A stretch of 64,000 nucleotides of DNA. It comes from an uncultured cyanobacterium (lineage in GTDB: Bacteria; Cyanobacteriota; Cyanobacteriia; PCC-9006; JAAUQQ01). This document shows, in pieces, positions 10,540-44,204 of this stretch. Each line of letters begins with the position of its first letter. Positions within the stretch are counted from its first letter, which is position 1. The notes beneath the pieces were generated by a model. The model was given only the letters and a program-made list of their open reading frames with translations, was not told the origin of the DNA and ran no database searches. The DNA is taken from the NCBI GenBank assembly GCA_963718615.1, contig OY970368.1, positions 384,001 through 448,000 of the forward strand, written 5' to 3'. The position numbers and the translations under genes are program-made.

Positions 10540-10695
10540 CAGGATGGTTTCTGGAGGGAACAGCTCCAGAAGGAAACGGGGAAAGCCAGTGTAAGTCTGG
10601 CGCTGTCCCGCAGCTGTAAGGTCGAGGATTGGTCTTTATGGGGTTTTGTGCCATGACCGCAGCCTTCACCAAGTCAGAATGCCCGCCATCAGGAC
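10540..10695 (+). ncRNA. Cobalamin riboswitch
   Basis: GGTTTCT...GGGGAAAGCCAGTGTAAGTCTGGCGCTGTCCCGCAGCTGTAA and the B12 box AAGTCAGAATGCCCGCC, upstream of hupE-cobW. Boundaries approximate. Confidence 0.9.
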
Positions 10696-10739
10696 TGTTC
10701 ACCGAATTAACATCTGCGCGGTACAGATGGGGAGACTTT

Positions 10740-11396
10740 ATGACGAGCAATGTGTTTGGGCGATTTTCGTCCATTGGGAAACTACTTTTTATCGTTGCAG
10801 GGGCGATCGCCACTCTCGGCCTTCTCCCCTCTACAGCTCTGGCTCACCATGCCCTCAGCGGTCGCCTTCCCAGTAATGGTTTAGAAGGATTCTACTCAGG
10901 ACTGGCCCATCCGATGATTGGCCTGGATCATTTTTGCTTTGTGCTGGCGATCGGGGTTTTGGCTGCAACCCAGGTGCGGGGGCTGTGGCTCCCGATTGTT
11001 TTTGTGCTGGCCGGCTTGGGGGGGACGCTGCTGCATCTCGCTGAATTTAATCTGCCCCTCGTCGAAGTGGGCGTTGCCGGTTCGCTGCTCCTGGCGGGTT
11101 GGTTCTTGGCGCGGCGACAGGGGTTACCGCTCGTGGCGCTGTTGGGATTGGGGGCGATCGCCGGTATTTTCCACGGCTATGCCTATGGAGAAAGCATTGT
11201 AGGGGCCGAAATGACGCCGTTGACTGCCTATTTGGCGGGTTTGACGCTGATTCAACTGGGGGTGGCGATCGCCGTCGCCCAGTTCTTCAAAACCGTCATC
11301 CAGCGGGCCACTCAGAACCCTGCGACGTTACTTCGCTATGCTGGGTTTACATTTTTTGGTGCGGGCATCGCATTTTTATCCACAGCTTTAGGGTGA
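10740..11396 (+). CDS. hupE: HupE/UreJ family cobalt/nickel transporter
   Basis: Signal peptide ending ALA-HH, 'SGLAHPMIGLDH', 'FHGYAYG'; GGAG SD before ATG 10740. Confidence 0.9.
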   Translation: MTSNVFGRFSSIGKLLFIVAGAIATLGLLPSTALAHHALSGRLPSNGLEGFYSGLAHPMIGLDHFCFVLAIGVLAATQVRGLWLPIVFVLAGLGGTLLHLAEFNLPLVEVGVAGSLLLAGWFLARRQGLPLVALLGLGAIAGIFHGYAYGESIVGAEMTPLTAYLAGLTLIQLGVAIAVAQFFKTVIQRATQNPATLLRYAGFTFFGAGIAFLSTALG

Positions 11397-11402
11397 TAGA
11401 AA

Positions 11403-12491
11403 ATGCATAAGATTCCGGTCACGATTATCACAGGATTTCTGGGTGCTGGCAAAACGACACTGGTTCGCAATCTTTTGCAAAATAACCAAGGCCGTCGCAT
11501 TGCGGTGTTGGTGAATGAGTTTGGCGAAGTCGGGATTGATGGGGATTTACTGCGCGGTTGTCAGGTTTGTGACGAGGAGGAGGTCCCAGGCTCCACCGAA
11601 GAATCCGCCGAATCCGCCGCTGCCAATAACACGGTCAATAACGCTGCCAATATTGTCGAACTGACCAACGGCTGTCTCTGCTGCACGGTCCAGGAGGAGT
11701 TTTTGCCCACGATGGAGGAACTGCTCAAGCGTCGCGATCAGATCGACTGCATGCTGATTGAAACCAGTGGATTGGCAATGCCGAAGCCCTTGGTTCAAGC
11801 CTTTCGCTGGCCGGAGGTACGCACCGGAGCAACGGTGGATGGTGTGGTCACAGTGGTAGATTGTGTGGCGGTGGCTGCGGGGCAATTTGCGTCGAATCTA
11901 GAAGCCCTAGAACAGCAGCGCCAGGCAGATGACAGTTTAGACCATGAAACGCCCCTGGAAGAGTTGTTTGAGGATCAGCTCAACTGTGCGGATTTGGTGC
12001 TGTTGACGAAAGTCGATCAGGTGGAGCCAGCCGTGCGGGAAACGGTGGAGCGGTGGTTGCGATCGCAACTCAAACCCCAAGTCAAAATTATCCCCTGCAC
12101 CCACGGAGAGATCAGCCCTGAGGTTCTGCTGGGGTTTAATGCCGCCGTTGAAGACGATCTAGAGAGTCGGCCCAGCCACCATGACCACGAGCATGAGCAT
12201 GAACACGACGAGCATCTCAATTCGGTGGTGTGGCTCAGTGACGCTGCTTTTGAGCCTCAAGCTCTGATTGCGAAGCTTCAGCAACTGGTAGAAACCCAGG
12301 AAATCTATCGCATTAAGGGGTTTGTCCAGGTGCCGAACAAGCCCATGCGGTTGGTTTTGCAAGGGGTGGGGTCGCGGTTTGATTCCTTTTTCGATCGCCC
12401 TTGGCAACCGGATGAACCGCGACAAACTCGGTTGGTGCTGATTGGGGATGAGCTGGATGGGGAGGCGATCGAGCGTCAGCTTAGCCTGTGA
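11403..12491 (+). CDS. cobW: Cobalamin biosynthesis GTPase CobW
   Basis: GFLGAGKTT, NEFGE, GCLCCTV, ETSGLA and a His-rich linker; riboswitch context. Confidence 0.95.
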   Translation: MHKIPVTIITGFLGAGKTTLVRNLLQNNQGRRIAVLVNEFGEVGIDGDLLRGCQVCDEEEVPGSTEESAESAAANNTVNNAANIVELTNGCLCCTVQEEFLPTMEELLKRRDQIDCMLIETSGLAMPKPLVQAFRWPEVRTGATVDGVVTVVDCVAVAAGQFASNLEALEQQRQADDSLDHETPLEELFEDQLNCADLVLLTKVDQVEPAVRETVERWLRSQLKPQVKIIPCTHGEISPEVLLGFNAAVEDDLESRPSHHDHEHEHEHDEHLNSVVWLSDAAFEPQALIAKLQQLVETQEIYRIKGFVQVPNKPMRLVLQGVGSRFDSFFDRPWQPDEPRQTRLVLIGDELDGEAIERQLSL

Positions 12492-31169: not shown

Positions 31170-31424
31170 CTACAGATTATAGAGGTAGTTGACAATGCCC
31201 TCCTCTGCTTTAATGACAGGCAAAAACAACTGATACTCCCATCCTTCTCCAGCAGGACGATCCTTTTTAGCGATGTAGTCTTGCCTTGGCCCCCCTTTTC
31301 CTTCCACGCCTGCATAACGTTCAACTGTGTGAAAAATGAATACTCTGGCGTAAGCGTAGCTGAGTAAGTATATGCACAGCATACCCAATAGAATCGGGAG
31401 TAATTTACTGTTTTTCTGCATCAT
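31170..31424 (-). CDS. Small hypothetical protein with N-terminal TM helix (probable second cassette of array A)
   Basis: MMQKNSKLLPILLGMLCIYLLSYAYAR...; lies directly downstream of attC-A. Confidence 0.55.
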   Translation of the reverse strand: MMQKNSKLLPILLGMLCIYLLSYAYARVFIFHTVERYAGVEGKGGPRQDYIAKKDRPAGEGWEYQLFLPVIKAEEGIVNYLYNL

Positions 31425-31572
31425 TGATCGAGTGAGTTGTGAAAATAGCGATCCTGTACTATACAAGATTTCACAGTTTGAGGCTCTAAAACAGGAACAC
31501 TGCAAGCTTAGAGAGGAGAATGAGGGTCTGAGGCGAGAGACTGAGGGGATGCCCAAACTGGGGAATTAAGCC

Positions 31573-31660
31573 GTCCAACGACCCCGTTCACCCGCCGCTG
31601 GCAATCTTTCGGACTCACCAACCAACTTGATTCGGTCGGTGTGCAACGGGATTGTTATAC
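31573..31660 (-). other. attC-like recombination site (attC-A, 88 bp)
   Basis: Minus strand: GTATAAC (R'') AAT CCCGTTGCAC ... GTGAACGGG GTC GTTGGAC (R'). The arms pair with one unpaired G; starts 11 bp after the stop of 31672-32547. Confidence 0.85.
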
Positions 31661-31671
31661 TGCGACCGCGA

Positions 31672-32547
31672 TCAGAATGGCTTGGAACGCCGTAAAAAAT
31701 TCTCTGCGAAAACTTCCGGTTGCCCTACTAACTCGCTATCGGGATCTTGGTTACGAAAGAGTAGCCCAATACCGAAGTCTTCATTTCCAAATTTTCGTTG
31801 CAGATACCTCCAATTTTCAATAAGGTAGCGCGAACTTCCAAGCGTTGCACTTGAACCAAGTCCGGCGCAAATAAAGACGCTGATCTTCTTGTCTACATCA
31901 TAAAATCTATGAATGAATGCAGGTTCTACACGCTGGTCACGACCTTCCCCGGTAATTGAATCTGCTAAACCATCTTGGCGAACACCCATCACTCGTTGAC
32001 CTTTATTGTCTTTAGTATGATAAAAATAAAAGCGATAAATTTCATCATACTTTGGAAAATAATCGTTTAAATAATAGTGCGATAAGCTGTTATATATGCC
32101 AGTACCTAAGATGATCAGGTTGCTACTGAATGCTGAGTTTCTGTTGCTAACAATTTGTTTTGTTGGGCTAATTCTAATAGGAGCATCAATGGCTCTTAGC
32201 TCTAAATTTTCTTGACCCAACCAGTCCTGTAGCTTTTTAGAAAACAGAGCAAGTGGTTTATCTTTCAGTTCATGCTGTATAAGTAGCGCACCATCATACT
32301 CTAGTTTAGTAATGGCAGAGCCAACATAACCCTTGTCAATCTTTTCAATGCCTGATGTACCTCCAGGTTGAATATTCAAATTAGAAACGTAGATGCAAAC
32401 ATTTGGATTAGAACTGGTGATTCCGAAGAAGCGTAAAATTCTATTTCTATTTCTCAAATATAAAAAGGCGTAGACAATAAAGCCTATTAATGCAAAGATC
32501 AAGGCTGCAATTAGATTTGCTACGACATTAATTAATATTTCGTTCAT
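31672..32547 (-). CDS. Hypothetical protein, N-terminal TM helix plus alpha/beta domain (cassette gene)
   Basis: 291 aa, AT-rich; motifs 'NLIILGTGIYN' and 'VFICAGLGSSATLG'; family not recognised. Confidence 0.75.
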   Translation of the reverse strand: MNEILINVVANLIAALIFALIGFIVYAFLYLRNRNRILRFFGITSSNPNVCIYVSNLNIQPGGTSGIEKIDKGYVGSAITKLEYDGALLIQHELKDKPLALFSKKLQDWLGQENLELRAIDAPIRISPTKQIVSNRNSAFSSNLIILGTGIYNSLSHYYLNDYFPKYDEIYRFYFYHTKDNKGQRVMGVRQDGLADSITGEGRDQRVEPAFIHRFYDVDKKISVFICAGLGSSATLGSSRYLIENWRYLQRKFGNEDFGIGLLFRNQDPDSELVGQPEVFAENFLRRSKPF

Positions 32548-32595
32548 ACAGCTACTTCACATCATTTTTATTTAAGTCGTTTTACTCATCTAGCT

Positions 32596-33387
32596 TTACG
32601 TTGAGCCAAGACAAGATTGTTGCCATTTGTATAGGAAATTAATTAGCTCTTCAGGTGGTTTTATCCACATATCTGCATGAGTCAAACGTAACTGTTCACG
32701 CACTAAGACATTTAACCCTCTTTGACTAAGAACTTTGAACGCATCTTCATCGGTATAGTCATCTCCCAAATAAGCAATTGGAACATTCTCTTCTAAATCC
32801 TTGATAATAGAATTTACTGCTGTCCCTTTATCTTTTCCATTTACGCGAATTTCTATTCCACCATCAAAATCATGAACTTTTAGGTTTGATGACTTTTCTA
32901 AATCTTGCCAATAATTTAAAACTTGCGCCTGAATAGAATCAGCTATATCTGATGACAGACCTCGCCAATGAAGAGCTAAGCTGACAGGTTTCTGCTCACA
33001 ATATTTTGTGAGTTTTAGCGATTTAATATGCTCTTTGGCTTGGGAAAGTGCTTGTCTTGTATGCTCATCAAGAGAAGCAATTACATAATTTCCATCAGCA
33101 AGATGTTCCCATCCATGAGATCCCCAAATCTCTGGCAGGGGATCTATATGAAGCAAGGGAACCAAATCTTGTACTGCCCGCCCGCTGATAATTACAACTC
33201 GCGATAGCTGATTGCGACAAATTTCACCTAACAACTCAGGAACACCCGTATATGGAAATGCTTGATCTCGCTCTACACGAAAAGGGGCAAGCGTACCATC
33301 GTAATCCAGCAATAAGAGGCGTCTCCTTGCCGTTGTGACTTTTCTAAAAAATGCCTCTATATCAAGACCTTTCGATAGGATCTCCAT
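32596..33387 (-). CDS. otsB: Trehalose-6-phosphate phosphatase-like HAD hydrolase (cassette gene)
   Basis: 'LLLDYDGTLAP', 'ISGR', 'GSHGWE', 'DKGTAV', 'YLGDDYTDEDAF'. Confidence 0.85.
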   Translation of the reverse strand: MEILSKGLDIEAFFRKVTTARRRLLLLDYDGTLAPFRVERDQAFPYTGVPELLGEICRNQLSRVVIISGRAVQDLVPLLHIDPLPEIWGSHGWEHLADGNYVIASLDEHTRQALSQAKEHIKSLKLTKYCEQKPVSLALHWRGLSSDIADSIQAQVLNYWQDLEKSSNLKVHDFDGGIEIRVNGKDKGTAVNSIIKDLEENVPIAYLGDDYTDEDAFKVLSQRGLNVLVREQLRLTHADMWIKPPEELINFLYKWQQSCLGST

Positions 33388-33512
33388 CCATTTACGCCTT
33401 GCTTTAGATAACTTAGTTTTTCTCTTGTGAAATCTAACAGATTTTTGATGGGGTGGCTACAGCATTACAGATGGCTTCTCAGTTAAGCCTTAGCTGACCA
33501 TCAGAGCCGTAT

Positions 33513-33813
33513 AACAACTTATTCTCATGCACAATGCCTGATAACTCCCCCCTGCCGGTATTTTCAAGCGCCAACGCCGTATAATCCCCAGTCTCAGCCA
33601 GTTATCCAGGCAATCATGCTGGATAACACCCCCTGTTGGGTATTATCAGGCAAAGCTGCATGATAACAACCCGTTTCCAGGTATTATCCCAGCAGCGACG
33701 CCCGATAACACCCCTGTTCAGGTATTATCAGGCATGTCTCAGTATAATATTATTCTCTTCAACCCAGCGTAGAAAATGACAAAATCTTCACCAACAGCTC
33801 AGCACTCTAGACC
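33513..33813 (-). repeat. 301-bp attI-like platform, copy A
   Basis: Colinear with 43904-44204 (offset 10391 at both ends). Homology stops at minus-strand ...GAGAATAAGTTGTT|ATAC; contains ~41-bp periodic GATAAC...TATTATC units. Confidence 0.8.
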
Positions 33814-33921
33814 AGACCTCTTGCATGAATGCTAAACGACATTTTGGTCGAGTTCCAAGTTGTATAGGGAAGCAATCAGGTTGAAGCGCAAACCAAACCG
33901 CTTGCGACGATTGCGATAGCG
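33814..33921 (-). mobile_element. 3' end of IS702-like (IS5/ISL2 group) element
   Basis: Terminal IR agacctcttgcatgaat (33814-33830); transposase C-terminus RYRNRRKRFGLRFNLIASLYNLEL (33921-33832). Confidence 0.85.
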
Positions 33922-34080
33922 CTAAGAAACTGGTGAAATTGATGCTGGAAGAGAGTTTTAGCCATCCTTACCTTTGGAGCACTACCAAATAGCGAAAAAT
34001 GCTTGAAACCCTTATTTGGGGGCACGTATAAAGAATCTGGCGATCCTTATTTCAGTGGCATTGAGCTTTAGTTTATTTCG

Positions 34081-34800
34081 CTACAGCAAATTCGCGGGGG
34101 GATTTTCAGGCACAACCCAGTAGTAGATCGTTCTGCCATCTATTTCTACGGTCTGATCGGGCTTCCACTCTCCCATATCAAACGCATGAGAAACAATGCG
34201 TGTACCTGGTTTTAATTCGCGCAGGAGTTTGGGACGCAGCTTCACGTTGAGTTCTGGCAACAAGTACAGTGTAACAACAGTGGCATCGCTGAAGTCAGCC
34301 TGAAACAAATCTTGCTGACGGAACTCAACAAGGTCACTCACACCAGCTGTTTGAGCCTTCTCATTCGCCTCTCGAATGCGTTCGGGGCTAATATCAATCC
34401 CAATTCCGCGTGCGCCGCGCTGTTGAGCTGCTGTAATCACAATTCGCCCATCGCCGCTCCCCAAATCGTAAACCAGATCATTAGATTGCACATTTACCAA
34501 CCGTAGCATTTCATTCACAACCGTCATGGGCGTTGGAACGTATATCACATCAGGTTTGCGGGTGGGAGATTCTGTTGTGGGGGTAGGAACGACTTGAGCC
34601 TGATCGGAAGAAGGAGCAGTTTGGACGTTAGCATCTGGACCTTGGGCCTCTGCTTCAAAGTTACGGAGTTGGGTACAGCCAACTCCCGCAAGACTAAAAA
34701 CGCCAATTCCCGCAAGACTAAGAGCGCTAATGCCAACCCGTAGCGATCGCAGCGTGGATTGAAGCACAGTGGATTTGAACAGCGTAGATTGAAGTTTCAT
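34081..34800 (-). CDS. Class I SAM-dependent methyltransferase with signal/lipoprotein-like N-terminus
   Basis: 'PDVIYVPTP', 'YDLGSGDGRIV', 'ATVVTLYLLPELN', 'PGTRIVSH'. Confidence 0.9.
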   Translation of the reverse strand: MKLQSTLFKSTVLQSTLRSLRVGISALSLAGIGVFSLAGVGCTQLRNFEAEAQGPDANVQTAPSSDQAQVVPTPTTESPTRKPDVIYVPTPMTVVNEMLRLVNVQSNDLVYDLGSGDGRIVITAAQQRGARGIGIDISPERIREANEKAQTAGVSDLVEFRQQDLFQADFSDATVVTLYLLPELNVKLRPKLLRELKPGTRIVSHAFDMGEWKPDQTVEIDGRTIYYWVVPENPPANLL

Positions 34801-34831
34801 GATTTTGATCTCCTAAAAAAAGAGGACTGAA

Positions 34832-36190
34832 TTATTCGGTACGACGGATAAAGGGAAGACCCAGTAATACGACGATGACTCCTGCGATTGCGCCGATGCC
34901 GGTATAAACCAGACTAGAGTAGAGTAAATAACCACAGATGGCGCAGAATAGGGTGGGAACAATCGGATAAAGCGGTACACGAAACGGACGGGAGCGATTA
35001 GGTTCCCGAATTCGAAAAACGATCAATGACAGGGTGCTGAGCAAAAAGAAAAACCAGAAGATGGGGGCAGTATAGTCCACCATTGTCTCGAACCCTTGAC
35101 GGGTCAAACTTCCCAGCCCAAGCAGGGTGAGTGCGATCGCCCCTTGCAACAAATAAGCGGTTGTGGGTGAACTGGGTTTCGGGTGCCATTGTCCTAGCCA
35201 GTGGAATGAAGACACATCCTGCCCCAGAGCAAAGCTAGTGCGGGCACCTGTCAAGAGGGTTGCATTGATTGACCCTAGCGTTGCAATCACAACCAGCCAA
35301 CTCACAAATGCAGCTCCCGGTTCACCCAAAGTCTGCCGCACTAAATCTGCTGCAACCGCTTGGGAGTCCGCCATACCTGCCACACCCAATCCCCGTAGGT
35401 ATGCTAGGTTAATCAACAGATAAATCCCCGTGATGATGCCAATGCTCCAGAGAAGAGATCGCCCGATATTCCGCTGAGGATTTTGGATTTCCGCAGAAAT
35501 GTAAGCCGCTTCATTCCACCCCCCATAGGACAGCAGCACAAAGACTAAAGCTAAACCCCAGGAGGGCGGAGAGGCAGAAGGAGCATTGGGAGCAACAGAA
35601 GCAGAGGTGGAAAAGCCAAGCCCCAAGAGGATAACCAGCAGTAATCCTAACAGGAGAAACACGGCTAACCAGTTCTGAAGTCCTTTGCTTTGGCGCAGTC
35701 CAATGATGTTAAGCGCAGTCAGCAGCGAGATCGTCCCCGCCGCATAAATGGAAGGCGAGTAGCCCCCTAGCGGCAATAGCTGCGAAGCATAATCGCCAAA
35801 GATAAATGCTAACAGTGCGATCGATCCAGGTTGAATCACAGTCATGCGTGCCCAGGCAAACAGAACTGCGATCGGTTGTCCAAAGGCTCGCTTCAGATAG
35901 TAGTAATTGCCACCGACATGGGGGTAGGCAGTCGCGAGTTCCGCATAGCACAATGCCCCCAACAGGGACACAATACCCCCTATTAGCCAGACTCCAATAA
36001 CACCGCCAACCGTTCCAGTATTGGCAGCGACTAGAGCTGGCGTTTCAAAAATACCTGCGCCGATCACCAATCCTACGATTAAGGTGATCGCATCAACCGA
36101 AGTAAGAGAAGGACGTGGAACTGTATTACCAGGTTGATTGCGCTCCAGTAGTGCAGAGTTTTCTAATCTAGTCACAGTTCTCCTTATCAA
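34832..36190 (-). CDS. APC family amino-acid permease
   Basis: 'IGAGIF', 'GALCYAELA', 'SYGGWNE', 'RPFRVPLYP'; many TM helices. Confidence 0.92.
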   Translation of the reverse strand: MIRRTVTRLENSALLERNQPGNTVPRPSLTSVDAITLIVGLVIGAGIFETPALVAANTGTVGGVIGVWLIGGIVSLLGALCYAELATAYPHVGGNYYYLKRAFGQPIAVLFAWARMTVIQPGSIALLAFIFGDYASQLLPLGGYSPSIYAAGTISLLTALNIIGLRQSKGLQNWLAVFLLLGLLLVILLGLGFSTSASVAPNAPSASPPSWGLALVFVLLSYGGWNEAAYISAEIQNPQRNIGRSLLWSIGIITGIYLLINLAYLRGLGVAGMADSQAVAADLVRQTLGEPGAAFVSWLVVIATLGSINATLLTGARTSFALGQDVSSFHWLGQWHPKPSSPTTAYLLQGAIALTLLGLGSLTRQGFETMVDYTAPIFWFFFLLSTLSLIVFRIREPNRSRPFRVPLYPIVPTLFCAICGYLLYSSLVYTGIGAIAGVIVVLLGLPFIRRTE

Positions 36191-36619
36191 TGACTAAAAG
36201 TTATGTCCAATGCCCAGCCGTAAGCCAACTTATGGTTTCCCCAAAAATCCAACATTGACCCCCGCATTGGCTGTGGGCTGAACCGTTAGAGGAACATGGA
36301 CACCGCCTTTCACCAATACGTACACAGTGCTTCTCTGCCAGTCGAAATGAAGGTTTCCCCGCCAGCGCAAGGCGTTAGGCTGATCCACTCATTGGCATTC
36401 AGACATTGGGATGACAGACTCAGACATCAAAGGCTTAATTTGCAAACTAATGCCTGAAGCATCAGCCATACCGAGTGCAGCCGATTGCCTGCTAAGTAAC
36501 GAGCAACATTTCTGCTAGACCCGAAATAACAAAGAATCGCTTGAAGCGTAGAGCATTCATCACAAAAATTTGTCAATGACAATAGCAAGATTTAAGTCTT
36601 ACTCTTATGGTCAACAATA

Positions 36620-36641
36620 AATGTGACTTAAAAGTGACAGG
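36620..36641 (-). promoter_or_regulatory. OmpR/PhoB-type direct-repeat box (putative)
   Basis: Minus strand CTGTCAC-tttt-AAGTCAC with 11-bp period, upstream of the permease-methyltransferase unit. Confidence 0.4.
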
Positions 36642-36694
36642 ATTTAGGGATGAAGCATGATTTTGAACTTTTCTCAAATTCAAACCACAGTTCA

Positions 36695-37611
36695 GAGGAT
36701 ATTTGGAAAGTAAGAAAAAGCTCATGCAAGTCTACGTAGCATAAGTCTGATCATGGCAATGTGTATGAAAGCCTCAGAGGATTCGGACAAGCATTCATAA
36801 TCGACGTTGAGCCGACGACACCAACAAAGCCAGCCATAGGTTCGTTCGACCATCCAGCGCTTTGGCAGCAGCACAAAACCCTTGGCATGATCGGGACGAA
36901 GCACCCCTTCTAAAATCCAGCAAAAGTTATCGATAACCCAGCAGAGACAGTCTTTGCCTGAGAATCCACCATCGACTCAAATTCTAGCTAACCGTGGAAC
37001 GCGTTCTCTTTCGTCATCAAGCTTATGGAGCAATTGCTTGGCCCCTTCTCGCTCTGGAACATTGGCAGCGACCCCGTGGACCATAATCAATAATCCTAGG
37101 GTGTCGACGAGGGTAAAGCGCTTGCGTCCTTTGGTTTTCTTGCCTGCGTCATAGCCTACCTGATGGCGAACCATCACGGCAGTGGGAACAGTTTGAGAAT
37201 CCAGACTGCCAGCACTGGGACTGGGGTGTCGGTCTTGGTCAACGCGGCGGCACCAAGTAACGAGCTTGTCATGCACCCGTTTCCAAGTGCCATCATCGCG
37301 CCACTGACTGAAGGAGTAGTAGACAGTGGAATAGGGAGGATAGTCCTTGGGCAACAATCGCTAAGCACAACCACTGACCAGAATATAGAGGATGCCTTGT
37401 ATGACCCACTTCAGGTTGACTTGCCTGGGACGTCCCCCTGGCTTACTCGCCGCAAGCAGGCTCAATAGCAGCTCCCACTGGTCAGAGGTCAGTTCACTAG
37501 AGTAGGCTGCTGTCATGGCTTTTCGGGGGGGTGAGGTTGGGTTATTTCAACCTAATACCCAAGAAGCTTTTCTTCTACACTGGTGCTCAACGCTACTTTC
37601 TAAATATCCTC
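36695..37611 (-). mobile_element. IS5 family (IS1031 group) insertion sequence, 917 bp
   Basis: IRs gaggatatttggaaagta / tactttctaaatatcctc (17/18 match), flanked by a TCA target duplication. Confidence 0.92.
36722..37516 (-). pseudogene. IS5 transposase pseudogene
   Basis: Single frame from MTAAYSSELTSDQW to RRLA with two in-frame stops at usual Trp positions (GCA*R, RI*VDGG); DSQTV, GYDAGKK and KRWMVERT motifs. Confidence 0.9.
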
Positions 37612-37631
37612 TCAAGCTACAGTGATTCAAC

Positions 37632-38909
37632 TTACAGACGGTGTTCCACCGACAGTTGTAAGGAAAATTCAATTTGAAACAGTGAACCCTTTCCAACTTG
37701 GCTGCTCACCGTTAACCGTCCACCATGCGCTTCCACAATTTGCTGCGCGATCGCCAATCCCAGTCCAGCACCACCTTTCTCTCGTGTTCGTTCCTCATCA
37801 ACCCGGTAAAATCGATCAAAAATACGCAATAAATCTAGTTCTGAAATACCAACTCCCGTATCTTCTACCTGAATTAAAATGCAATGATATTGATTCACTA
37901 GCCGTAACCATACCGCTCCATTAGGTAAGGTATATTTACAAGCATTGATCAATAGATTGGTGATAGCTTGTTTTAGCAACTCAGGGTTGCCTTGGATAAT
38001 ACTATTCTCTTTAGGCAGTTCTAAATGAATGATTAGATGTTGGGCAGCAAATTGTATCGCTGAAGTGATGATCGTCTCTTCCAATAAGTTATTTAAGTTA
38101 ATTAATTGAACCGAGTTTGAGTCTAACTGCCCTGGCTGTCGTGCCAAAAATAGGAGATCGGTCACGAGCCGATTCATTAGCTTGGTCGCTTCAGCAATCT
38201 TTTCTAACCGAGTGTGTTTAGGCTTACCTGCATCAACTGGACTTAGTAAGCCAACTTGAGCATTACTGAGAATTGTGGCAAGGGGTGCTCTTAGTTCATG
38301 GGATGCATCAGACGTAAACCGTTCTAGTTGAGCGTAAGCGTCCCGAATCGGATACATCGCCAAACCACTTAGTACCCAACCGGTGAGGCTGATTGCTCCT
38401 AACGTCAGAGGGACTGCCAGCATCATCATGATGAGTAGGTCTCTGAGTGTATCTTGAGCTTCAGTTAGCGGAAGAGCAATCTGAAGGTAGCCTATTGTGC
38501 GTCCGTCGTAGTCAACCGGGAGCGTTAATTGGCGCAGCCATTCGGAATCTGATTGAATCGTTTCAAAAGCCGCGCTCGTCTGAATTTGATCGAGGGGCTG
38601 CACTCCATAAAACTGCCGTATTTTTCCGACCTTTGAGTACCAACGAGCGTAAACAATCTCACTATCTGAGGGAGGAAAATAATTTCCTAAGATCGGAACG
38701 TTACTGAGATCAAGGTGTTCTTTTCCCTGCTGCCGCTGGTAGCTGATATTAGCTGCCATGATTCTTGCTTTTTTGTAGAGTAGGCGATCAATCTCTTCCA
38801 GACGCTCGATTGATCGCTGGTAATAAAAAATGCTGGCAAACAAAATTAAAATGCTACCCATCGATAGCGTAAACCAATGGGCAAGATTACGGCGACTACG
38901 ATTGAACAT
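37632..38909 (-). CDS. Sensor histidine kinase (RppB/NrsS-like)
   Basis: Two TM helices; 'DASHELRAP' H-box; N, G1 (DTGVG) and G2 (GAGLGL) boxes. Confidence 0.93.
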   Translation of the reverse strand: MFNRSRRNLAHWFTLSMGSILILFASIFYYQRSIERLEEIDRLLYKKARIMAANISYQRQQGKEHLDLSNVPILGNYFPPSDSEIVYARWYSKVGKIRQFYGVQPLDQIQTSAAFETIQSDSEWLRQLTLPVDYDGRTIGYLQIALPLTEAQDTLRDLLIMMMLAVPLTLGAISLTGWVLSGLAMYPIRDAYAQLERFTSDASHELRAPLATILSNAQVGLLSPVDAGKPKHTRLEKIAEATKLMNRLVTDLLFLARQPGQLDSNSVQLINLNNLLEETIITSAIQFAAQHLIIHLELPKENSIIQGNPELLKQAITNLLINACKYTLPNGAVWLRLVNQYHCILIQVEDTGVGISELDLLRIFDRFYRVDEERTREKGGAGLGLAIAQQIVEAHGGRLTVSSQVGKGSLFQIEFSLQLSVEHRL

Positions 38910-39576
38910 TTGGATTTAATCGATAACCCATGCCATATATTGTTTCCAGCCAATCAACAGCGCCTATGGCCCGCAATCGTTGTCGCAGCCGATACACTAA
39001 TGCAGTAATAGCATTACTCTCTGGCTCGCTGCCCCATTCCCACAAGGCTTGTTCAATCTGGTCGCGGGAAAGTACCTGCCGAGGATGACGCATGAGATAC
39101 TCTAGAAACTGAAATTCGCGAGTAGACAGTTGAAGACTCTGCTCACCCCGTTCTACTGTCAATGTCGATAAGTGCAGGGTTAGATCTTCAATGTGCAGCA
39201 TATCCCCTTCCCAGAGAGGTGATCGTCGTCCTAATGCCCGCACCCGTGCCAGCAATTCAAACACATCAGCAGGTTTGACGAGATAATCATCTGCTCCAGC
39301 ATCCAAACCGCTAATTTTGTCTGGAGTGGCATCTTTTGCGGTCAGCAGTAGCACTGGAGAAGTTTTTCCTAGTTGGCGATAGTGTTGACATAGGCTAAAG
39401 CCACTGACGTGAGGTAATAACCAATCTAGAATTAATAGATCGTACTCCCGCTTCGATAAGATCCACTGAGCGATCTCACCATCCTCCACACCATCCACAA
39501 TATGCCCTGCTTGAGAGAGGGCAGCCTGAAGCGGCTCCAGTTGACTCGCATCATCTTCTACTAGCAGGATTCGCAT
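38896..39576 (-). CDS. OmpR family response regulator (RppA-like)
   Basis: 'MRILLVEDD', 'LDWLLP', 'GADDYLVKP', winged helix 'ETIYGMGYR'; overlaps the kinase start. Confidence 0.95.
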   Translation of the reverse strand: MRILLVEDDASQLEPLQAALSQAGHIVDGVEDGEIAQWILSKREYDLLILDWLLPHVSGFSLCQHYRQLGKTSPVLLLTAKDATPDKISGLDAGADDYLVKPADVFELLARVRALGRRSPLWEGDMLHIEDLTLHLSTLTVERGEQSLQLSTREFQFLEYLMRHPRQVLSRDQIEQALWEWGSEPESNAITALVYRLRQRLRAIGAVDWLETIYGMGYRLNPNVQS

Positions 39577-39723
39577 TAGTCCAACTATAGTTCTGCACAA
39601 TGCATCATAGATGAAACGATTGAAGGGCAGCGTCCCCCAGAGGTGCGATTTAACTTACTGTATTGCTGAATAAAATTTATTTATTCAGTTTCCACCTCAC
39701 TCCTCCGATTCTCTTAAAATCCC

Positions 39724-40113
39724 ATGTTTGTTCCGCGCATACTACGGCTTCTCCATTGCACTGGCTGGGAATTCTGGCTGCCTCTGCCCTTTATTTCGGC
39801 ATTATTTTGGTTTACAGGTAACTTTGCAGTTGCAGAGATACTAAACCGCTCTTATGGATCTGTCATCAAACTCCAGGCAGATATGCAAATGGATGTAAGG
39901 CCTTCCCGGACAATCCTATCTATGAATGCAGAAATTGATCGCAGCCGAGGTGTGAGCACGATTTTTGTCAGAATCACCGATTTAACGTTGGGGGAATTAA
40001 AATATGAGTTCCCAGTTACCCAAGCTAGTGAAATAGAGACAGCGATCGCTCAGAAACTAGAACTATCTACTGAAAACATCCGCAAGCTGCTCAGGTATCG
40101 ACTTGTAGACTGA
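39724..40113 (+). CDS. Hypothetical cyanobacterial protein with N-terminal TM
   Basis: 'EFWLPLP...FW' N-terminal segment; divergent from the two-component pair. Confidence 0.6.
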   Translation: MFVPRILRLLHCTGWEFWLPLPFISALFWFTGNFAVAEILNRSYGSVIKLQADMQMDVRPSRTILSMNAEIDRSRGVSTIFVRITDLTLGELKYEFPVTQASEIETAIAQKLELSTENIRKLLRYRLVD

Positions 40114-40260
40114 GTGGACTCAGTAAACGCATTCGGAACGGGCTAAGGTCGTTTCAGCCCATCAATGCCCAGTCTGTTCAGTCGTGGGGCGCATTTCGGT
40201 TTCGGTTTTGTGACACCGTGGGCATTCTCGACCCCCTGATATCAAATGTCAATTACTTTG

Positions 40261-40931
40261 AGTTCTTGGCAGCTTTGGGTGATCCTTTATAGAAAGCACA
40301 GTTGCATTTCCCCTCTAGCTCAACTGGAGAACAAGAAGCGTTTGCTCAACAAATCTAGACCAGCTCGACCATACATTTGTCGTTTGAGCATTTTTAACTG
40401 ATTGACCAGTCCTTCCACTGGCCCATTGCTCGTTTCCAAAGTCATGCTTGCTTTGACGGCTTCATAGTCCTCAAATAGCCTCTCGGCAAACCTTTGAAGC
40501 AGGTGTGCATCTTCTGGGTATCGATTTTCTTCCTTTTGCATGGTCAGATAGGTTACGCGTCGTGGGGTCAGTGGTGGATTTTGAGGGTCAATGACGTTCG
40601 GTAGCCCTTCAGTGGAAACTGAGCGCCTTGAACCAAGACTTTGAGCTTGGCGGATTCGAGGCAGGTAGCGTGTTAATGTTCGAGCACCTCCTGAATATCC
40701 CTTCTGTTAGAGGAGCTTCAATAACACTTGAGGACGGGTGATTCCGTCGTTCCACAATTGCAGCAAATAGTCTTTATAGGGATTGAGAAGGCTCAATCCG
40801 AAGGTATTCCGCCTTTTAGGTTCCGGTGTCTGAGGTTTTTGCGGATAACGTTGAACACTTTTTATACTCACTCCGACCCGTTGAGCAATCTCAGTGAGTG
40901 GTAAGTTTTGCTGATGCAGCTTCCAGATCTG
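40261..40931 (-). mobile_element. ISL3 family transposase remnant (3' part, internally deleted)
   Basis: 'SNGPVEGLVNQLKMLKRQMYGRAGLDLL'; upstream 'EIAQRVGVSIKSVQRY' and 'LLNPYKDYLLQLWNDG' with a stop; terminal gttcttggcagctttgggtga. Confidence 0.85.
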
Positions 40932-41248
40932 TCACATGCTCGATCTTGACCCGTAGCTTCCCTAACTCTCGGTTGTAAACTTTCTGCGTCTCACTCAGCT
41001 TACCCCCCCTGGGTTTCTTCACCGGGGTGAAGCCCGGTTGCCCACTCCGCTGACCCGCTTTGGGCAGGTGCGGGCGTAAGTCATTGGCTAGACGTTCAAA
41101 CGTCTCTGGCTTGATTCCGCTGTAACGACGAAACTCTCCAGGTTTGAGGGGTTTGAGTTGGCTGTAGTGCATGGCGATCGCAAGGTCACTTTCTTACTCT
41201 TCAACCCCAATTTCTCTCTCTCGCTCCGGCTATTCGTGCAAGAGGTCT
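40932..41248 (-). mobile_element. 5' end of IS702-like element, internally deleted
   Basis: IR attcgtgcaagaggtct (41232-41248); ORF MHYSQLKPLKPGEFRRYSGIK... jumps to 'PVKKPRGGKLSETQKVYNRELGKLRVKIEHV'. Confidence 0.85.
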
Positions 41249-41461
41249 AATAGTGTCTTTTGATAGTGTTAAACCAGTTTTTTCCTATCCATATTGAAAT
41301 AGATGGTTGTGCTTAGTCCACACAACTAAAGCTAGATAACGACAAAGTTGAGCAGAAATGAGAGAACTCGAAGGTAGACGAGAAGATTGTGGATTGCCGC
41401 TCCAAAAACTGGTTCACTAGCAGCCCTTACCGAGATCTCCAACGTATAAATCATCGTGATT

Positions 41462-42895
41462 TTAGGGTTGGTAGCCGAGTTTTGTGAGGGCTGCTGCTGC
41501 ACTCGACCGCACTTCTTTATCCGGATCTTTGAGTGCAACAATGAGTGCTGGAACTGCTTCTTGAGCAGATTCCCCTATTTGACCTAATGCAATTGCTACA
41601 CTCAAACGTACCTCCTTATCTGGATCTTTGAGTGCAATGATGAGTGCCGGAACCGCAGGTTTCGCAGATCCTACAATCCCAAATGATTCAAATTTAAGCG
41701 ATTCGAAATCAACTAAGTATTCCGAGTCTTCGGGTAGAACTATAGGGTCAGGCACCTCCCTGGTGACTCCTGTTATATCATCTAATGCCGATTGTGCTTC
41801 AAATTGCACGAGGCTATCTGCGTCTTTGAGTACAGCAATAAGTGCCGGAACTGCTGCTTTGGCAGATTCTCCGATTCGGCCTAATGCCCATGCTGCACTC
41901 GAGCGCACGTCCAGATCTGGGTCTTTGAGTGCGGTAATGAGTGCCGGAACTGCTGCTTTTGATGATTCTCCGATTTGGCTTAATGCCCATGCTGCACTCG
42001 AGCGCACTTCCTTATCTGAGTCTTGGAGAGCCGTGGCGAGTCCCGGAACCGCCACTTTGGAAGATTCTCCGATTCGGCCTAATGCCCATGCTGCACTCGA
42101 GCGCACATCCAGATCTGGGTCTTTGAGTGCGGTAATGAGTGCCGGAACTGCTGCTTTTGATGATTCTCCGATTTGGCCTAATGCCCATGCTGCACTCGAG
42201 CGCCCTTGTGCCTCGGAGTCTTTGAGCGCAATGATGAGTGCCGCTTTGCCCGATTCTCCGATTCGGCCTAATGCTTCTGCTGCACTCGAGCGCACTTGTG
42301 CGTCAGGGTCTTTGAGCGCGATAATGAGCTTAGGAACTGCTTCCTTGGCTGGTTCTCCTATTCGTCCTAAAGCAATTGCTACGCTCGAGCGCACTTGTGC
42401 CTCGGGGTCTTTGAGCGCGATAATGAGCTCAGGAATTGCTTCCTTAGCTGGTTCTCCTATTTGTCCTAAAGCAATCGCTACGCTCGAGCGCATCTGTGGA
42501 GATGAATCTTTGATCGCTGTGATGAGTTCAGGAATCGCTGTTTTTGCAGACTCTCCGATCTCACCCAATACTTCTGCTGCATTTTGTCGAACACAGTTAT
42601 CTAGTAAAAATGAAATGTATTCGCATTGCTCTGGGTGTCTGAGTGCAAAGATAAGTTTAGGAACCGCTGTTTTTGCAGATTCTCCAATGTCGCCTAGCCC
42701 CTTGGCTCCACTCGATCTCACTTTTGAATCGGTTGAGGCCAAGTCTTGGATTAATTGCTTGATTTTCTGAGGAGCAATAATTTCTGATGACAAGGGTCGA
42801 AAAGGATCTGCTCGGACCACTGAAATCGGAACTACAATTTGAACCATAGTTACAAATACGATGGAGAGAAGTTTGTAGCGCAATCGCATCTTCAT
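41462..42895 (-). CDS. HEAT-repeat (PBS lyase-like) protein with signal peptide
   Basis: Many 33-aa 'ALKD....VRSSAA.ALG.IGE..K.AVP.L' repeats. Confidence 0.92.
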   Translation of the reverse strand: MKMRLRYKLLSIVFVTMVQIVVPISVVRADPFRPLSSEIIAPQKIKQLIQDLASTDSKVRSSGAKGLGDIGESAKTAVPKLIFALRHPEQCEYISFLLDNCVRQNAAEVLGEIGESAKTAIPELITAIKDSSPQMRSSVAIALGQIGEPAKEAIPELIIALKDPEAQVRSSVAIALGRIGEPAKEAVPKLIIALKDPDAQVRSSAAEALGRIGESGKAALIIALKDSEAQGRSSAAWALGQIGESSKAAVPALITALKDPDLDVRSSAAWALGRIGESSKVAVPGLATALQDSDKEVRSSAAWALSQIGESSKAAVPALITALKDPDLDVRSSAAWALGRIGESAKAAVPALIAVLKDADSLVQFEAQSALDDITGVTREVPDPIVLPEDSEYLVDFESLKFESFGIVGSAKPAVPALIIALKDPDKEVRLSVAIALGQIGESAQEAVPALIVALKDPDKEVRSSAAAALTKLGYQP

Positions 42896-42971
42896 TGCAA
42901 ACCTACCTAAATCAAAAATTTTGAGTTGCCTAAATACAATCAGTTAAAGTTGCCAAATCGCTTTTACTAAT

Positions 42972-43053
42972 TAGACTTCCTGCATGAACCGAAAACCAGC
43001 GACGTAGTCATAAGGATTTTAGCCTGCAAACATGGGTCTGTACAAAAGGTCTA
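42972..43053. mobile_element. 82-bp MITE-like element with IS702-like ends
   Basis: tagacttcctgca ... tgtacaaaaggtcta imperfect IRs resembling agacctcttgca. Confidence 0.55.
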
Positions 43054-43139
43054 TTGAATAAGCTATAGATCAAAAAAACCATGACAATCAACGTAAAAAT
43101 ACTTGTTCAATGACTGCTCCAATCTAAACGACAATTTCA

Positions 43140-43227
43140 AGCTAACGTTGCCCATCACCCGCTGTAGTCGACCTGAAATACAAACAACTAACCTTTGGAC
43201 GGTCGATGTGCATGGGCATTGTTCGGC
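43140..43227 (-). other. attC-like recombination site (attC-B, 88 bp)
   Basis: Minus strand: GCCGAAC (R'') AAT GCCCATGCAC ... GTGATGGGC AAC GTTAGCT (R'). The arms pair with one unpaired G; starts 14 bp after the stop of 43242-43787. Confidence 0.85.
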
Positions 43228-43241
43228 TGCGTGTGTTAGTT

Positions 43242-43787
43242 TTATGCTTCATGATTTTCGGGAGGCTTACAGAAACGCAGTATTATATTCAAAGCAAGAG
43301 CTGGTAGAAGAGGTAGCTTTAAGAACCGACTTCCTCCTTTAACCTCACTTTCCCAAAATTTACCATTATCGTATCGCAACCGTAATGATTCCCCCTGAAG
43401 CAATAGTCCAGGCATCGAAGGATTGTACATTGCTGGCAAACTTGTACCTTTTGGAAAAATTCTGAGAAGATCCTCCGAGCTATTTACTTCTGCTTTCGAC
43501 TTTAAAGGAGGAATCAAGCGTTCTTTATGTCCGTCCACAGTACCAATTAGCCAATAACTCGCCAAACTATCCGAGCTAGAATCATACGTTCCATCTATCA
43601 CCATAAAAGAAACCGGACGATAACCTGCTGAATTCATATACAGCATTATTCGGTTACAGCTAGAAGGTAGACAGAGAATCGCCCACCACATCGCAAAACT
43701 TGTGGTTTTCTTTGCAAGACTGTAGATCCGCAATGGCGGACTTCTTAAAGCTGGACTCATAGGCTTTACAACTAAATCTTTTTGCAC
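43242..43787 (-). CDS. Hypothetical protein (cassette gene of array B)
   Basis: 181-aa ORF with hydrophobic segments near both ends, filling the interval between platform B and attC-B. Confidence 0.6.
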   Translation of the reverse strand: MQKDLVVKPMSPALRSPPLRIYSLAKKTTSFAMWWAILCLPSSCNRIMLYMNSAGYRPVSFMVIDGTYDSSSDSLASYWLIGTVDGHKERLIPPLKSKAEVNSSEDLLRIFPKGTSLPAMYNPSMPGLLLQGESLRLRYDNGKFWESEVKGGSRFLKLPLLPALALNIILRFCKPPENHEA

Positions 43788-43903
43788 TGCATGTATGTCT
43801 ATAGACGACGATAAGACTTATGCAGAAATTTACGTTTTTTTACAAATCAGTAAGTACTTGCCATCGTTCTGGCTGCTTATAATGACGCTAAATTGAGTGG
43901 TCG

Positions 43904-44204
43904 AACAACTTATTCTCATGCACAATGCTTGATAACTCCCCCCTCTCGTCATTCTCAACCACCAGCGCCCCATAATCCCCAGCAATGGTACATTATCCAC
44001 GCAATCATGCTGGATAACACCCCCGTACAGGTATTGCCAGGCAAAACTGCACGACAACAACCCATTTCCAGACATTATCCCAGCATAGCCGCCGGATAAA
44101 ATCCCTATACAGGTATTATTAAGTATGTCTCAGTATAAGCTTACCCTCTTCGACCCAGCGTAGAAAATTACAAAACCTTCACCAACAGCTCAGCACTTTA
44201 GACC
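43904..44204 (-). repeat. 301-bp attI-like platform, copy B
   Basis: Diverged colinear copy of 33513-33813; homology stops at minus-strand ...GAGAATAAGTTGTT|CGAC. Confidence 0.8.

Follow-up and report, generated by a model that had tools for sequence, protein, structure and literature searches.

Two probable single-cassette integron modules with attI-like platforms in the genome of an uncultured cyanobacterium

The attC sites of integrons follow a small set of structural rules. In the account of PMC5027507, their end boxes read RYYYAAC and GTTRRRY, their central spacer stays unpaired, and two or three extrahelical bases lie near L''. In the top strand, by the same account, these bases share an arm with AAC, and in the bottom strand they face it from the other arm; 6 bp separate the first from the last. 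We followed up a prediction, made from the sequence, of two attC sites in a 64,000-nt stretch from an uncultured cyanobacterium (contig OY970368.1, positions 384,001 to 448,000; the whole stretch is called the window below). The genome holding the window is a single 6.10-Mb contig with 52% GC. Both sites are very probably integron attC, each forming the 3' end of one gene cassette on an attI-type platform, and the two modules appear to be independent.

Integrons of Cyanobacteria are on record (PMC4889954, PMC2426708), and a Cyanobacteria-specific attC covariance model has already been published (Ghaly et al. 2021, PMC8352920). Sites of this sort are a known kind in cyanobacteria. Each attI site is recognized by its cognate integrase and by no other, while attC sites are shared widely (PMC2095811). 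Sites without a neighbouring integrase are described as single attC lacking integron integrases (SALIN) or as clusters of attC lacking integron integrases (CALIN). Insertion into attG, a genomic secondary site, has been proposed as the origin of single attC without integrase (bioRxiv 10.1101/2022.09.11.507474).

Anatomy of the two attC sites

Site 1 lies at 31573-31660 and site 2 at 43140-43227, both on the minus strand and both 88 nt long, as the original prediction had it. They share the minus-strand pattern ...AAC-AAT...TGCAC-A-nCGACCG...GCGGGTGA...GTT, and the exact core TGCACNNCGACCG was found in the window at these two places only (two of the 21 matches had 0 mismatches). Along the minus strand, a box followed by AAT leads into a 6-nt arm, a bulged G and CAC-A-(C/T)CG-A-CCG. 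A centre of ~43 nt separates this part from GCGGGTGA, after which the 6-nt complement of the arm, a 3-nt spacer and the GTT box complete the site. The 5' R'' and 3' R' boxes are GTATAAC and GTTGGAC in site 1, and GCCGAAC and GTTAGCT in site 2; each R'' agrees with the RYYYAAC consensus at 6 of 7 positions at least. The central spacer is unpaired, with 3 nt per arm (AAT versus GTC in site 1, AAT versus AAC in site 2).

The 6-nt arms read CCCGTT/AACGGG in one site and GCCCAT/ATGGGC in the other, with the bulged G adjoining. Three pairs are altered on both sides, which bears out the compensatory changes that had been claimed for the arms. A single extrahelical base had also been claimed, but two or three bases are bulged. 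In the consensus register the whole stem has three (G, A and A on the minus strand), and the AAC arm of that strand reads G-CAC-A-CCG-A. Folding of either strand gave an imperfect hairpin with all bulges confined to one arm. In site 2, the innermost stem pairs are weakened and partly broken, and an alternative inner pairing of TCGACC with GGTCGA is possible. According to the bulge rule, the plus strand of the window is the bottom (recombining) strand and the minus strand is the top strand. The direction of the open reading frames (ORFs), an independent criterion, gave the same assignment.

Covariance model R1 scored site 1 at 84.1 bits and site 2 at 77.3 bits. A second model, R2, was built from 34 sites of other genomes only and was run with filters off. 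Its window scan returned exactly the two intervals on the minus strand, with 78.8 bits (E 8e-20) and 63.6 bits (E 1.8e-15), and the sole further match at E ≤ 1 was the reverse strand of site 1 at 18.9 bits. Because a model made from foreign sites alone recovers exactly these two, they are beyond chance. Unfiltered scans with both models gave no further attC site within the window, and a larger attC array there was rejected on this result.

The window sites have the features by which attC are recognized: end boxes, a stem kept in structure, extrahelical bases, a spacer, a position after an ORF and boundary complementarity. As described in PMC5027507, VCR2 of Vibrio cholerae also belongs to a homogeneous family and has three bulges 3 bp apart opposite the bottom-strand AAC, the furthest being T. 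It differs in length (133 nt versus 85-93 nt here) and in the first bottom-strand bulge, which is usually G in the described sites and C here. Another difference from VCR2-like attC of sedentary integrons is that our sites are scattered singly or a few at a time and do not make up one long array. The original prediction had likened the attC family to those of sedentary integrons. The window itself has no such integron: a sedentary chromosomal integron is a large array beside a functional integrase, conserved within the species, and the window has neither array nor integrase, only two single-cassette modules 11.6 kb apart. Each site is instead a single attC without a neighbouring integrase, as in the SALIN and CALIN descriptions (PMC4889954, bioRxiv 10.1101/2022.09.11.507474). 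A CALIN is defined by at least two attC within 4 kb (PMC4889954), and the distance between the two sites exceeds this.

A class-wide attC family with a conserved hairpin

The genome contains 25 sites of this family, 85-93 nt in length. Twenty-three were found by nhmmer followed by R1, and two more by unfiltered scans of selected regions. Covariation within the genome was analyzed with an alignment of 18 sites. The 15-bp inner stem was 91.5% paired, versus 34-44% when the partner columns were slid, and 10 of its 15 pairs were altered on both sides. None of 500 column shuffles reached the observed pairing or covariation score. RNAalifold independently gave the hand-written 15-bp stem with three single-base bulges from the same alignment. 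A second sub-type (CAC-CGGA-A-CG with CG-TCCG-GTG) keeps the stem via paired changes.

In the 34 sites of other genomes, the stem was 96.7% paired and 12 of the 15 pairs were altered on both sides; the slid controls ranged from 31 to 44% overall. The extrahelical bases are conserved across genomes, a point on which the original prediction had staked its reading. The first bulge is G in 34 of 34 foreign sites and the last is A in 32, whereas the middle one is A in 15 and absent in 18. Among the end boxes, GTT is invariant (34 of 34) and AAC is present in 32. The hairpin is thus under selection, as its covariation indicates.

A position just past stop codons had been proposed as a check, and the sites were found there well above the controls. 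The cassette-1 ORF stops 11 nt and the cassette-2 ORF 14 nt upstream of their attC. Counting same-strand open frames of at least 60 aa, an ORF ended within 30 nt upstream at 14 of the 25 sites, compared with 3 of 25 on the flipped strand and 723 of 5000 random positions (14.5%). Within 50 nt the count was 17 of 25, versus 19.6% for random positions. In the loci of relatives, an ORF ended within 30 nt at 14 of 34 sites versus 5 of 34 flipped. The TAA within the ...TAAC box, acting as a stop codon, is part of this signal.

The suggested scan of cyanobacterial genomes was carried out with 40 relatives from 27 families of the class, none of them from the same genus. Sites were present in 36 of the 40, in 26 of the 27 families and in numbers of up to 74 per genome. 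In nine relatives, ten contigs have a family site on one strand and, a few kb off, an integrase gene or fragment on the other. Because 36 of the 40 relatives carry sites, often opposite integrase genes, the family is a class-wide cyanobacterial attC type. The sites had been called a lineage-specific attC family; the attC family stands, but it is not a narrow one. The class of Ghaly et al. 2021 likewise comprises cyanobacterial chromosomal attC caught by one model (PMC8352920), and R1 and R2 behaved in the same way across 26 of 27 families. Our family is probably identical with that published class.

The 88-nt repeats could in principle be something other than attC, namely a dispersed element like a repetitive extragenic palindrome or a miniature inverted-repeat transposable element, or an RNA structure such as a terminator or a stabilizer of the 3' untranslated region. 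The 25 sites are scattered over 6.1 Mb and not strung into an array, they come after ORF ends, and covariation alone cannot separate DNA from RNA. However, neither site nor platform had an Rfam match at the gathering threshold, and terminator-like sites in 31400-34100 numbered none versus 2.4 expected. Wobble pairs had no strand bias (10 G-U-type versus 9 A-C-type cells, by eye). The end boxes obey the integron AAC/GTT rule, and sites stand opposite intI genes or fragments in this genome and in nine others. A non-integron element would also leave the complementarity of cognate boxes, described below, unexplained. We therefore give this explanation almost no credence. Of the predicted selection on a single-stranded DNA hairpin, selection on the hairpin was confirmed by covariation; that it acts as single-stranded DNA rather than RNA is likely from the integron context, not from covariation.

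Platforms, cassettes and their junctions

Upstream of each cassette is a non-coding element of ~300 nt on the minus strand. Platform 1 (33512-33813) ends ...GAGAATAAGTT and is followed by the GTT crossover; platform 2 (43904-44204) is 82% identical to it. Both end ...GCATTGTGCATGAGAATAAGTT and pass directly into GTTATAC (cassette 1) or GTTCGAC (cassette 2). Their interior consists of tandem ~41-nt units, roughly five, each an imperfect palindrome GTTATC...GATAAC with a one-base bulge, and platform 1 has direct repeats spaced 40-42 nt plus inverted repeats. The z-scores of the unit hairpins were -3.0, -2.8 and -1.6. To judge from their sequence, these tandem palindromic repeats may be integrase-binding sites.

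The genome has about ten platform copies. A copy at a distance of 3.5 Mb has 95.7% identity to platform 1, and platform 2 shares ~40 nt more of distal flank, up to 44246, with a copy at genome 3906889-3907233. Three copies (3859327-605, 4646430-642 and 4713882-4714168) are placed between an intI remnant and the first site, with 34-40 nt separating them from the start of the remnant; an attI with its promoters occupies this position. Eight full-length copies here and three in relative G003 end ...AATAA(G/A/C)TT-GTT, and the next four bases vary. Since the same element abuts decayed integrase genes elsewhere in the genome, we read the platform as an attI region. A further full copy at genome 1015304-1015582 ends ...AATAAATT-GTTAGGT and has no family site within 1.5 kb on either side; it may be an empty platform.

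The attI1 site of class 1 integrons has several integrase-binding repeats. Like attI1 and the attI of other characterized integrons, the integrase-linked copies are situated between the integrase 5' end and the first cassette, with divergent strands, a GTT crossover and upstream repeats. The platform differs from such attI sites in its ~300-nt length, its ~five tandem palindromic units and its about ten copies per genome, most without an integrase. A BLAST search found it in 2 of 7 genomes of the same family and in 0 of 33 genomes of other families, at a sensitivity that leaves more diverged copies possible. By eye, the distal platform end had no convincing target-site duplication or second recombination site. 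A limited literature search, which is not proof of absence, yielded no account of an attI from cyanobacteria and none of attI platforms that occur in several copies without an integrase.

Cassette 1 as a recombination unit is 1,936 bp (31579-33514, minus strand) and runs from the TT after junction G 33515 to the G of R' at 31579. It contains an ORF of 291 aa without an assigned function (31672-32547, minus strand) and an ORF of 263 aa for a HAD-IIB trehalose-phosphatase-like protein (32596-33387, minus strand; PF02358 81.3 bits, TIGR00685 102.8 bits with a cut-off of 68.05). Over 31.8-33.2 kb, within cassette 1, the GC content is 34-39%, versus 56-64% in windows of 29.0-31.0 kb over putA. Cassette 2 is 760 bp (43146-43905, minus strand), from the TT after junction G 43906 to the G of R' at 43146. 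Its ORF, without an assigned function (43242-43787, minus strand), encodes 181 aa from a GTG or 172 aa from the ATG at 43760. Neither the 291-aa nor the 181-aa ORF had a match in Pfam, NCBIfam, PADLOC or PDB sequences. In the ESM Atlas, the nearest clusters were 'hypothetical protein' for the former, and unnamed clusters or weak DUF3592 leads for the latter.

The boundaries of the two units follow from the junction boxes, which complement the 5' boxes of their own attC. GTTATAC, the junction of cassette 1 (33515-33509), equals the reverse complement of the R'' box in site 1 (7/7), and the cassette 2 junction GTTCGAC (43906-43900) agrees with the reverse complement of its R'' (GTTCGGC) at 6/7. 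Opening of a cassette at G|TT leaves this signature, and an integrase probably made these junctions. The comparison was extended to all ten adjacent pairs less than 2.5 kb apart, from platform to first site or from one site to the next. Over these pairs, 31 of the 40 variable positions in the cassette-start boxes agreed with the complement of the cognate attC 5' box. For non-cognate pairings the mean was 1.72 of 4, and one of 50,000 partner permutations reached the observed sum. In relative G003, one pair could be checked, and its cassette start matched the complement of the next site's 5' box at 7/7.

Pairs more than 2.5 kb apart were left out because undetected sites may intervene. They were the platform pairs 4096k to 4100519, 4646k to 4649905 and 4713k to 4717576, and the site pairs 1908630 to 1916858, 1916858 to 1919945, 3858284 to 3852927, 3852927 to 3845696, 5022914 to 5014241 and 4649905 to 4668886. 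By eye, the pair 5022914 to 5014241 agreed at 7/7, and the pairs ending in a 'CCCCATAA'-type site did not agree. A cassette body of ~465 nt ending ...CCCCCATAA was seen outside the window in five copies that are 72-98% identical (2245208-2245672, 3853016-3853480, 3845783-3846246, 4717185-4717576 and 1919236-1919930). Each stands directly before a family site with an atypical 5' box, and this body is a multi-copy paralogous cassette. In addition, the bases just past the 3' GTT box are alike at five sites (window 31561-31572; genome 1908630, 3845696, 3858284 and 744910), where they read GGCTTAAT, GGCTTCGT, GGCTTCGG, AGCTTCGT and TGCTTCAA. This hints at a common sequence starting whatever comes next.

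Contigs from metagenomes break near the predicted junction of cassette 1. Short contigs of stromatolite metagenomes carry this cassette at roughly 97% likeness. A 175-nt stromatolite contig (X2) and a 377-nt hot-spring contig (X4), which come from two metagenome studies, contain the cassette 1 5' end; their matches end at 33515 and 33517, and the contigs run on for 29 and 87 letters. In contigs of a related organism (X5), the platform is present and similarity is lost at 33512, on the cassette side. One of these contigs joins a platform to the same Uma2-side flank as in module 2. Because the contigs break at 33512-33517, cassette and platform have been joined separately to other DNA: no more than 3 nt from the predicted crossover, the same cassette has a different upstream neighbour and the same platform a different downstream one.

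These junctions also bear on the origin of the modules. Each site with its cassette could be a SALIN that an integrase put into an ordinary secondary site (attG, GWT consensus) and not into attI. A single attC with no integrase nearby is the definition of a SALIN, and attG insertion is the proposed origin of SALINs (bioRxiv 10.1101/2022.09.11.507474). But both cassettes start at the same ~300-nt element and not at arbitrary DNA. About ten copies of this element share the GTT end, and three of them are 34-40 nt from intI remnants. An attG origin does not fit cassettes that both start at an attI-type platform, and we regard it as very unlikely.

The two modules have the same orientation, are 11.6 kb apart and lie within a stretch of lower GC, so they might be pieces of one former integron split by insertion sequence (IS) activity and rearrangement. 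Directly beyond platform 1, on its distal side, is a fragment of an IS-like repeat (33814-33923, no strand assigned); the remaining part of the repeat is at 40934-41252, and a DDE transposase fragment is at 40891-41172. At genome 306290-306668 the two IS-like parts adjoin without a gap, as they do in a related organism's contig (X5, record 28), where 33923 meets 40934. However, each module has its own complete platform, and a single integron has one attI. The platforms are 82% identical to each other, yet platform 1 is 95.7% identical to the copy 3.5 Mb off. The related contig with the Uma2-side flank implies that the module 2 locus predates a recent split. A split of one integron is therefore improbable, and two independent modules are preferred.

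Between the modules are genes for a methyltransferase, an amino-acid permease, a histidine kinase with a response regulator, the transposase fragment and a HEAT-repeat protein. Within this interval, ~7 kb with the methyltransferase, the permease and the two-component pair separate the two IS-like parts. The HEAT-repeat gene (41462-42895, minus strand) has internal DNA repeats in register at multiples of ~99 nt, 67-80% identical. Next to the first IS-like part, a 64-nt repeat at 33923-33986 has four other copies in the genome (840683, 1471466, 2801138 and 5622231), 88-94% identical. Two further features are unrelated to the modules. A cobalamin riboswitch (RF00174; 10528-10704, plus strand, 59.8 bits) lies upstream of ORFs at 10629-12491 and is the sole Rfam match in the window. 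A fourth 16S-like gene at genome 70-1612, at the contig start, is 77.8% identical to three identical 16S copies (3.876, 4.890 and 5.594 Mb); a chimeric assembly at the contig end or an rRNA gene of foreign origin could account for it.

Integrases and the present state of the modules

Integrases were searched with TIGR02249 (NCBIfam, integron integrase). The genome has one full-length gene (948656-949594, 443.8 bits with a cut-off of 265) and fragments at four further loci. At all four fragment loci, family sites stand on the opposite strand, on the 5' side of the fragment and 1.1-3.7 kb from its 5' end, which is the classical divergent arrangement. At one of these loci, three sites follow each other closely, at distances of 1.0 and 1.4 kb. 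Fragments and intact protein are 50-64% identical over most of the fragments' length; therefore, two or more integron lineages are present in the genome. The region upstream of the intact integrase is unrelated in sequence to the platform; in it, four tandem repeats at intervals of 33-40 nt lead up to a GTT junction (GTTAGCG). Near it, R1 gave only a 113-nt match of 13.8 bits at genome 948282-948394, which was absent with R2. By eye this match resembles a divergent attC after the GTTAGCG junction, although it is not established as one, and the intact integrase looks nearly free of cassettes. Among 41 genomes including this one, 17 have an integrase above the cut-off and 32 have a match at E ≤ 1e-8. 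Several genomes have sites and no integrase match, such as G015, G029 and G031.

From these data and the known systems, a mechanism can be proposed. When single-stranded, the plus (bottom) strand would fold into a hairpin in which the AAC and GTT boxes pair at the base, followed by a short unpaired spacer and then by the 15-bp stem. On the arm that faces the bottom-strand AAC triplet, the stem would present two or three bulged bases. Integron integrases are tyrosine recombinases; such an enzyme would recognize the shape of the hairpin and its bulges and cut within AAC, which corresponds to G|TT on the top strand. The cassette would then be exchanged with attI, by insertion at the GTT that ends the conserved ~300-nt platform.

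The integrase lineage of the platform itself remains in the genome only as pseudogenes, and none of these is in the window. Because attI needs its cognate integrase and the sole intact integrase belongs to another lineage, the modules are probably frozen and inert today, unless an integrase acts in trans. The window platforms have no adjoining intI. Together with the copy at 3.906 Mb, they share a distal flank without intI, unlike the integrase-linked copies, and the three carry three different cassettes at the identical GTT. It is possible that three small integrons each lost their integrase in a similar way; at platform 1, the IS-like fragment abuts at 33814. Alternatively, an integrase-less platform may have been copied and later loaded in trans. 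The latter idea can be taken further: the platform would be a free-standing, multi-copy attI, whose dispersed copies capture cassettes via an integrase in trans, one integrase serving many 'satellite' integrons. Such capture is hinted at because the intI-less platforms with a common flank carry three different cassettes at the identical GTT, but we consider it doubtful.

Several observations weigh against reading the window as two integron modules. The stability of the hairpins was not special relative to shuffled sequence (z -0.95 to +0.10), and stability is therefore not usable as evidence. The unpaired spacer is 3+3 nt, versus the usual 5-6, and the first extrahelical base on the bottom strand is C where G is usual. 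The 34 foreign sites were top-scoring matches fitted to the model, so their alignment (A3) is biased towards structure. Five of the 25 sites have no ORF of at least 60 aa ending within 100 nt. The TIGR02249 search found no integrase gene or fragment in the window, and the integron context is borrowed from other loci. The intact integrase, at 50-64% identity to the platform-linked remnants, has a different upstream region and no convincing family site adjoining. A promoter scan of 31400-34100 gave 7 matches versus 6.6 expected, which is chance level and supports no cassette promoter in the platform. Two of the ten junction pairs fail complementarity (2/4 and 1/4), both with atypical or degenerate 5' boxes. 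Finally, the junction contigs are assembled metagenome contigs taken at a likeness of at least 88%. With these points taken into account, we still hold with high confidence that the window consists of two modules of the form platform, one cassette and attC amid ordinary chromosomal genes and IS debris.

The attC sites themselves are ordinary for cyanobacteria, and calling them is routine. What is unusual is the multi-copy, mostly integrase-less platform. In a genome whose integron system is decaying, the two sites mark two small islands of captured genes, with a trehalose-phosphatase-like gene and two ORFs without an assigned function. Of more use is the platform, which defines a candidate attI for one lineage of cyanobacterial integrons. 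To our knowledge, very few integron classes have a known attI, and annotation tools cannot find such sites. The modules indicate that some single attC without an integrase sit on an attI-type platform, in contrast to SALINs, for which genomic secondary sites were recently proposed as the origin. If it is true that integrase-less platforms still capture cassettes, the picture of one integrase and one array would need widening.

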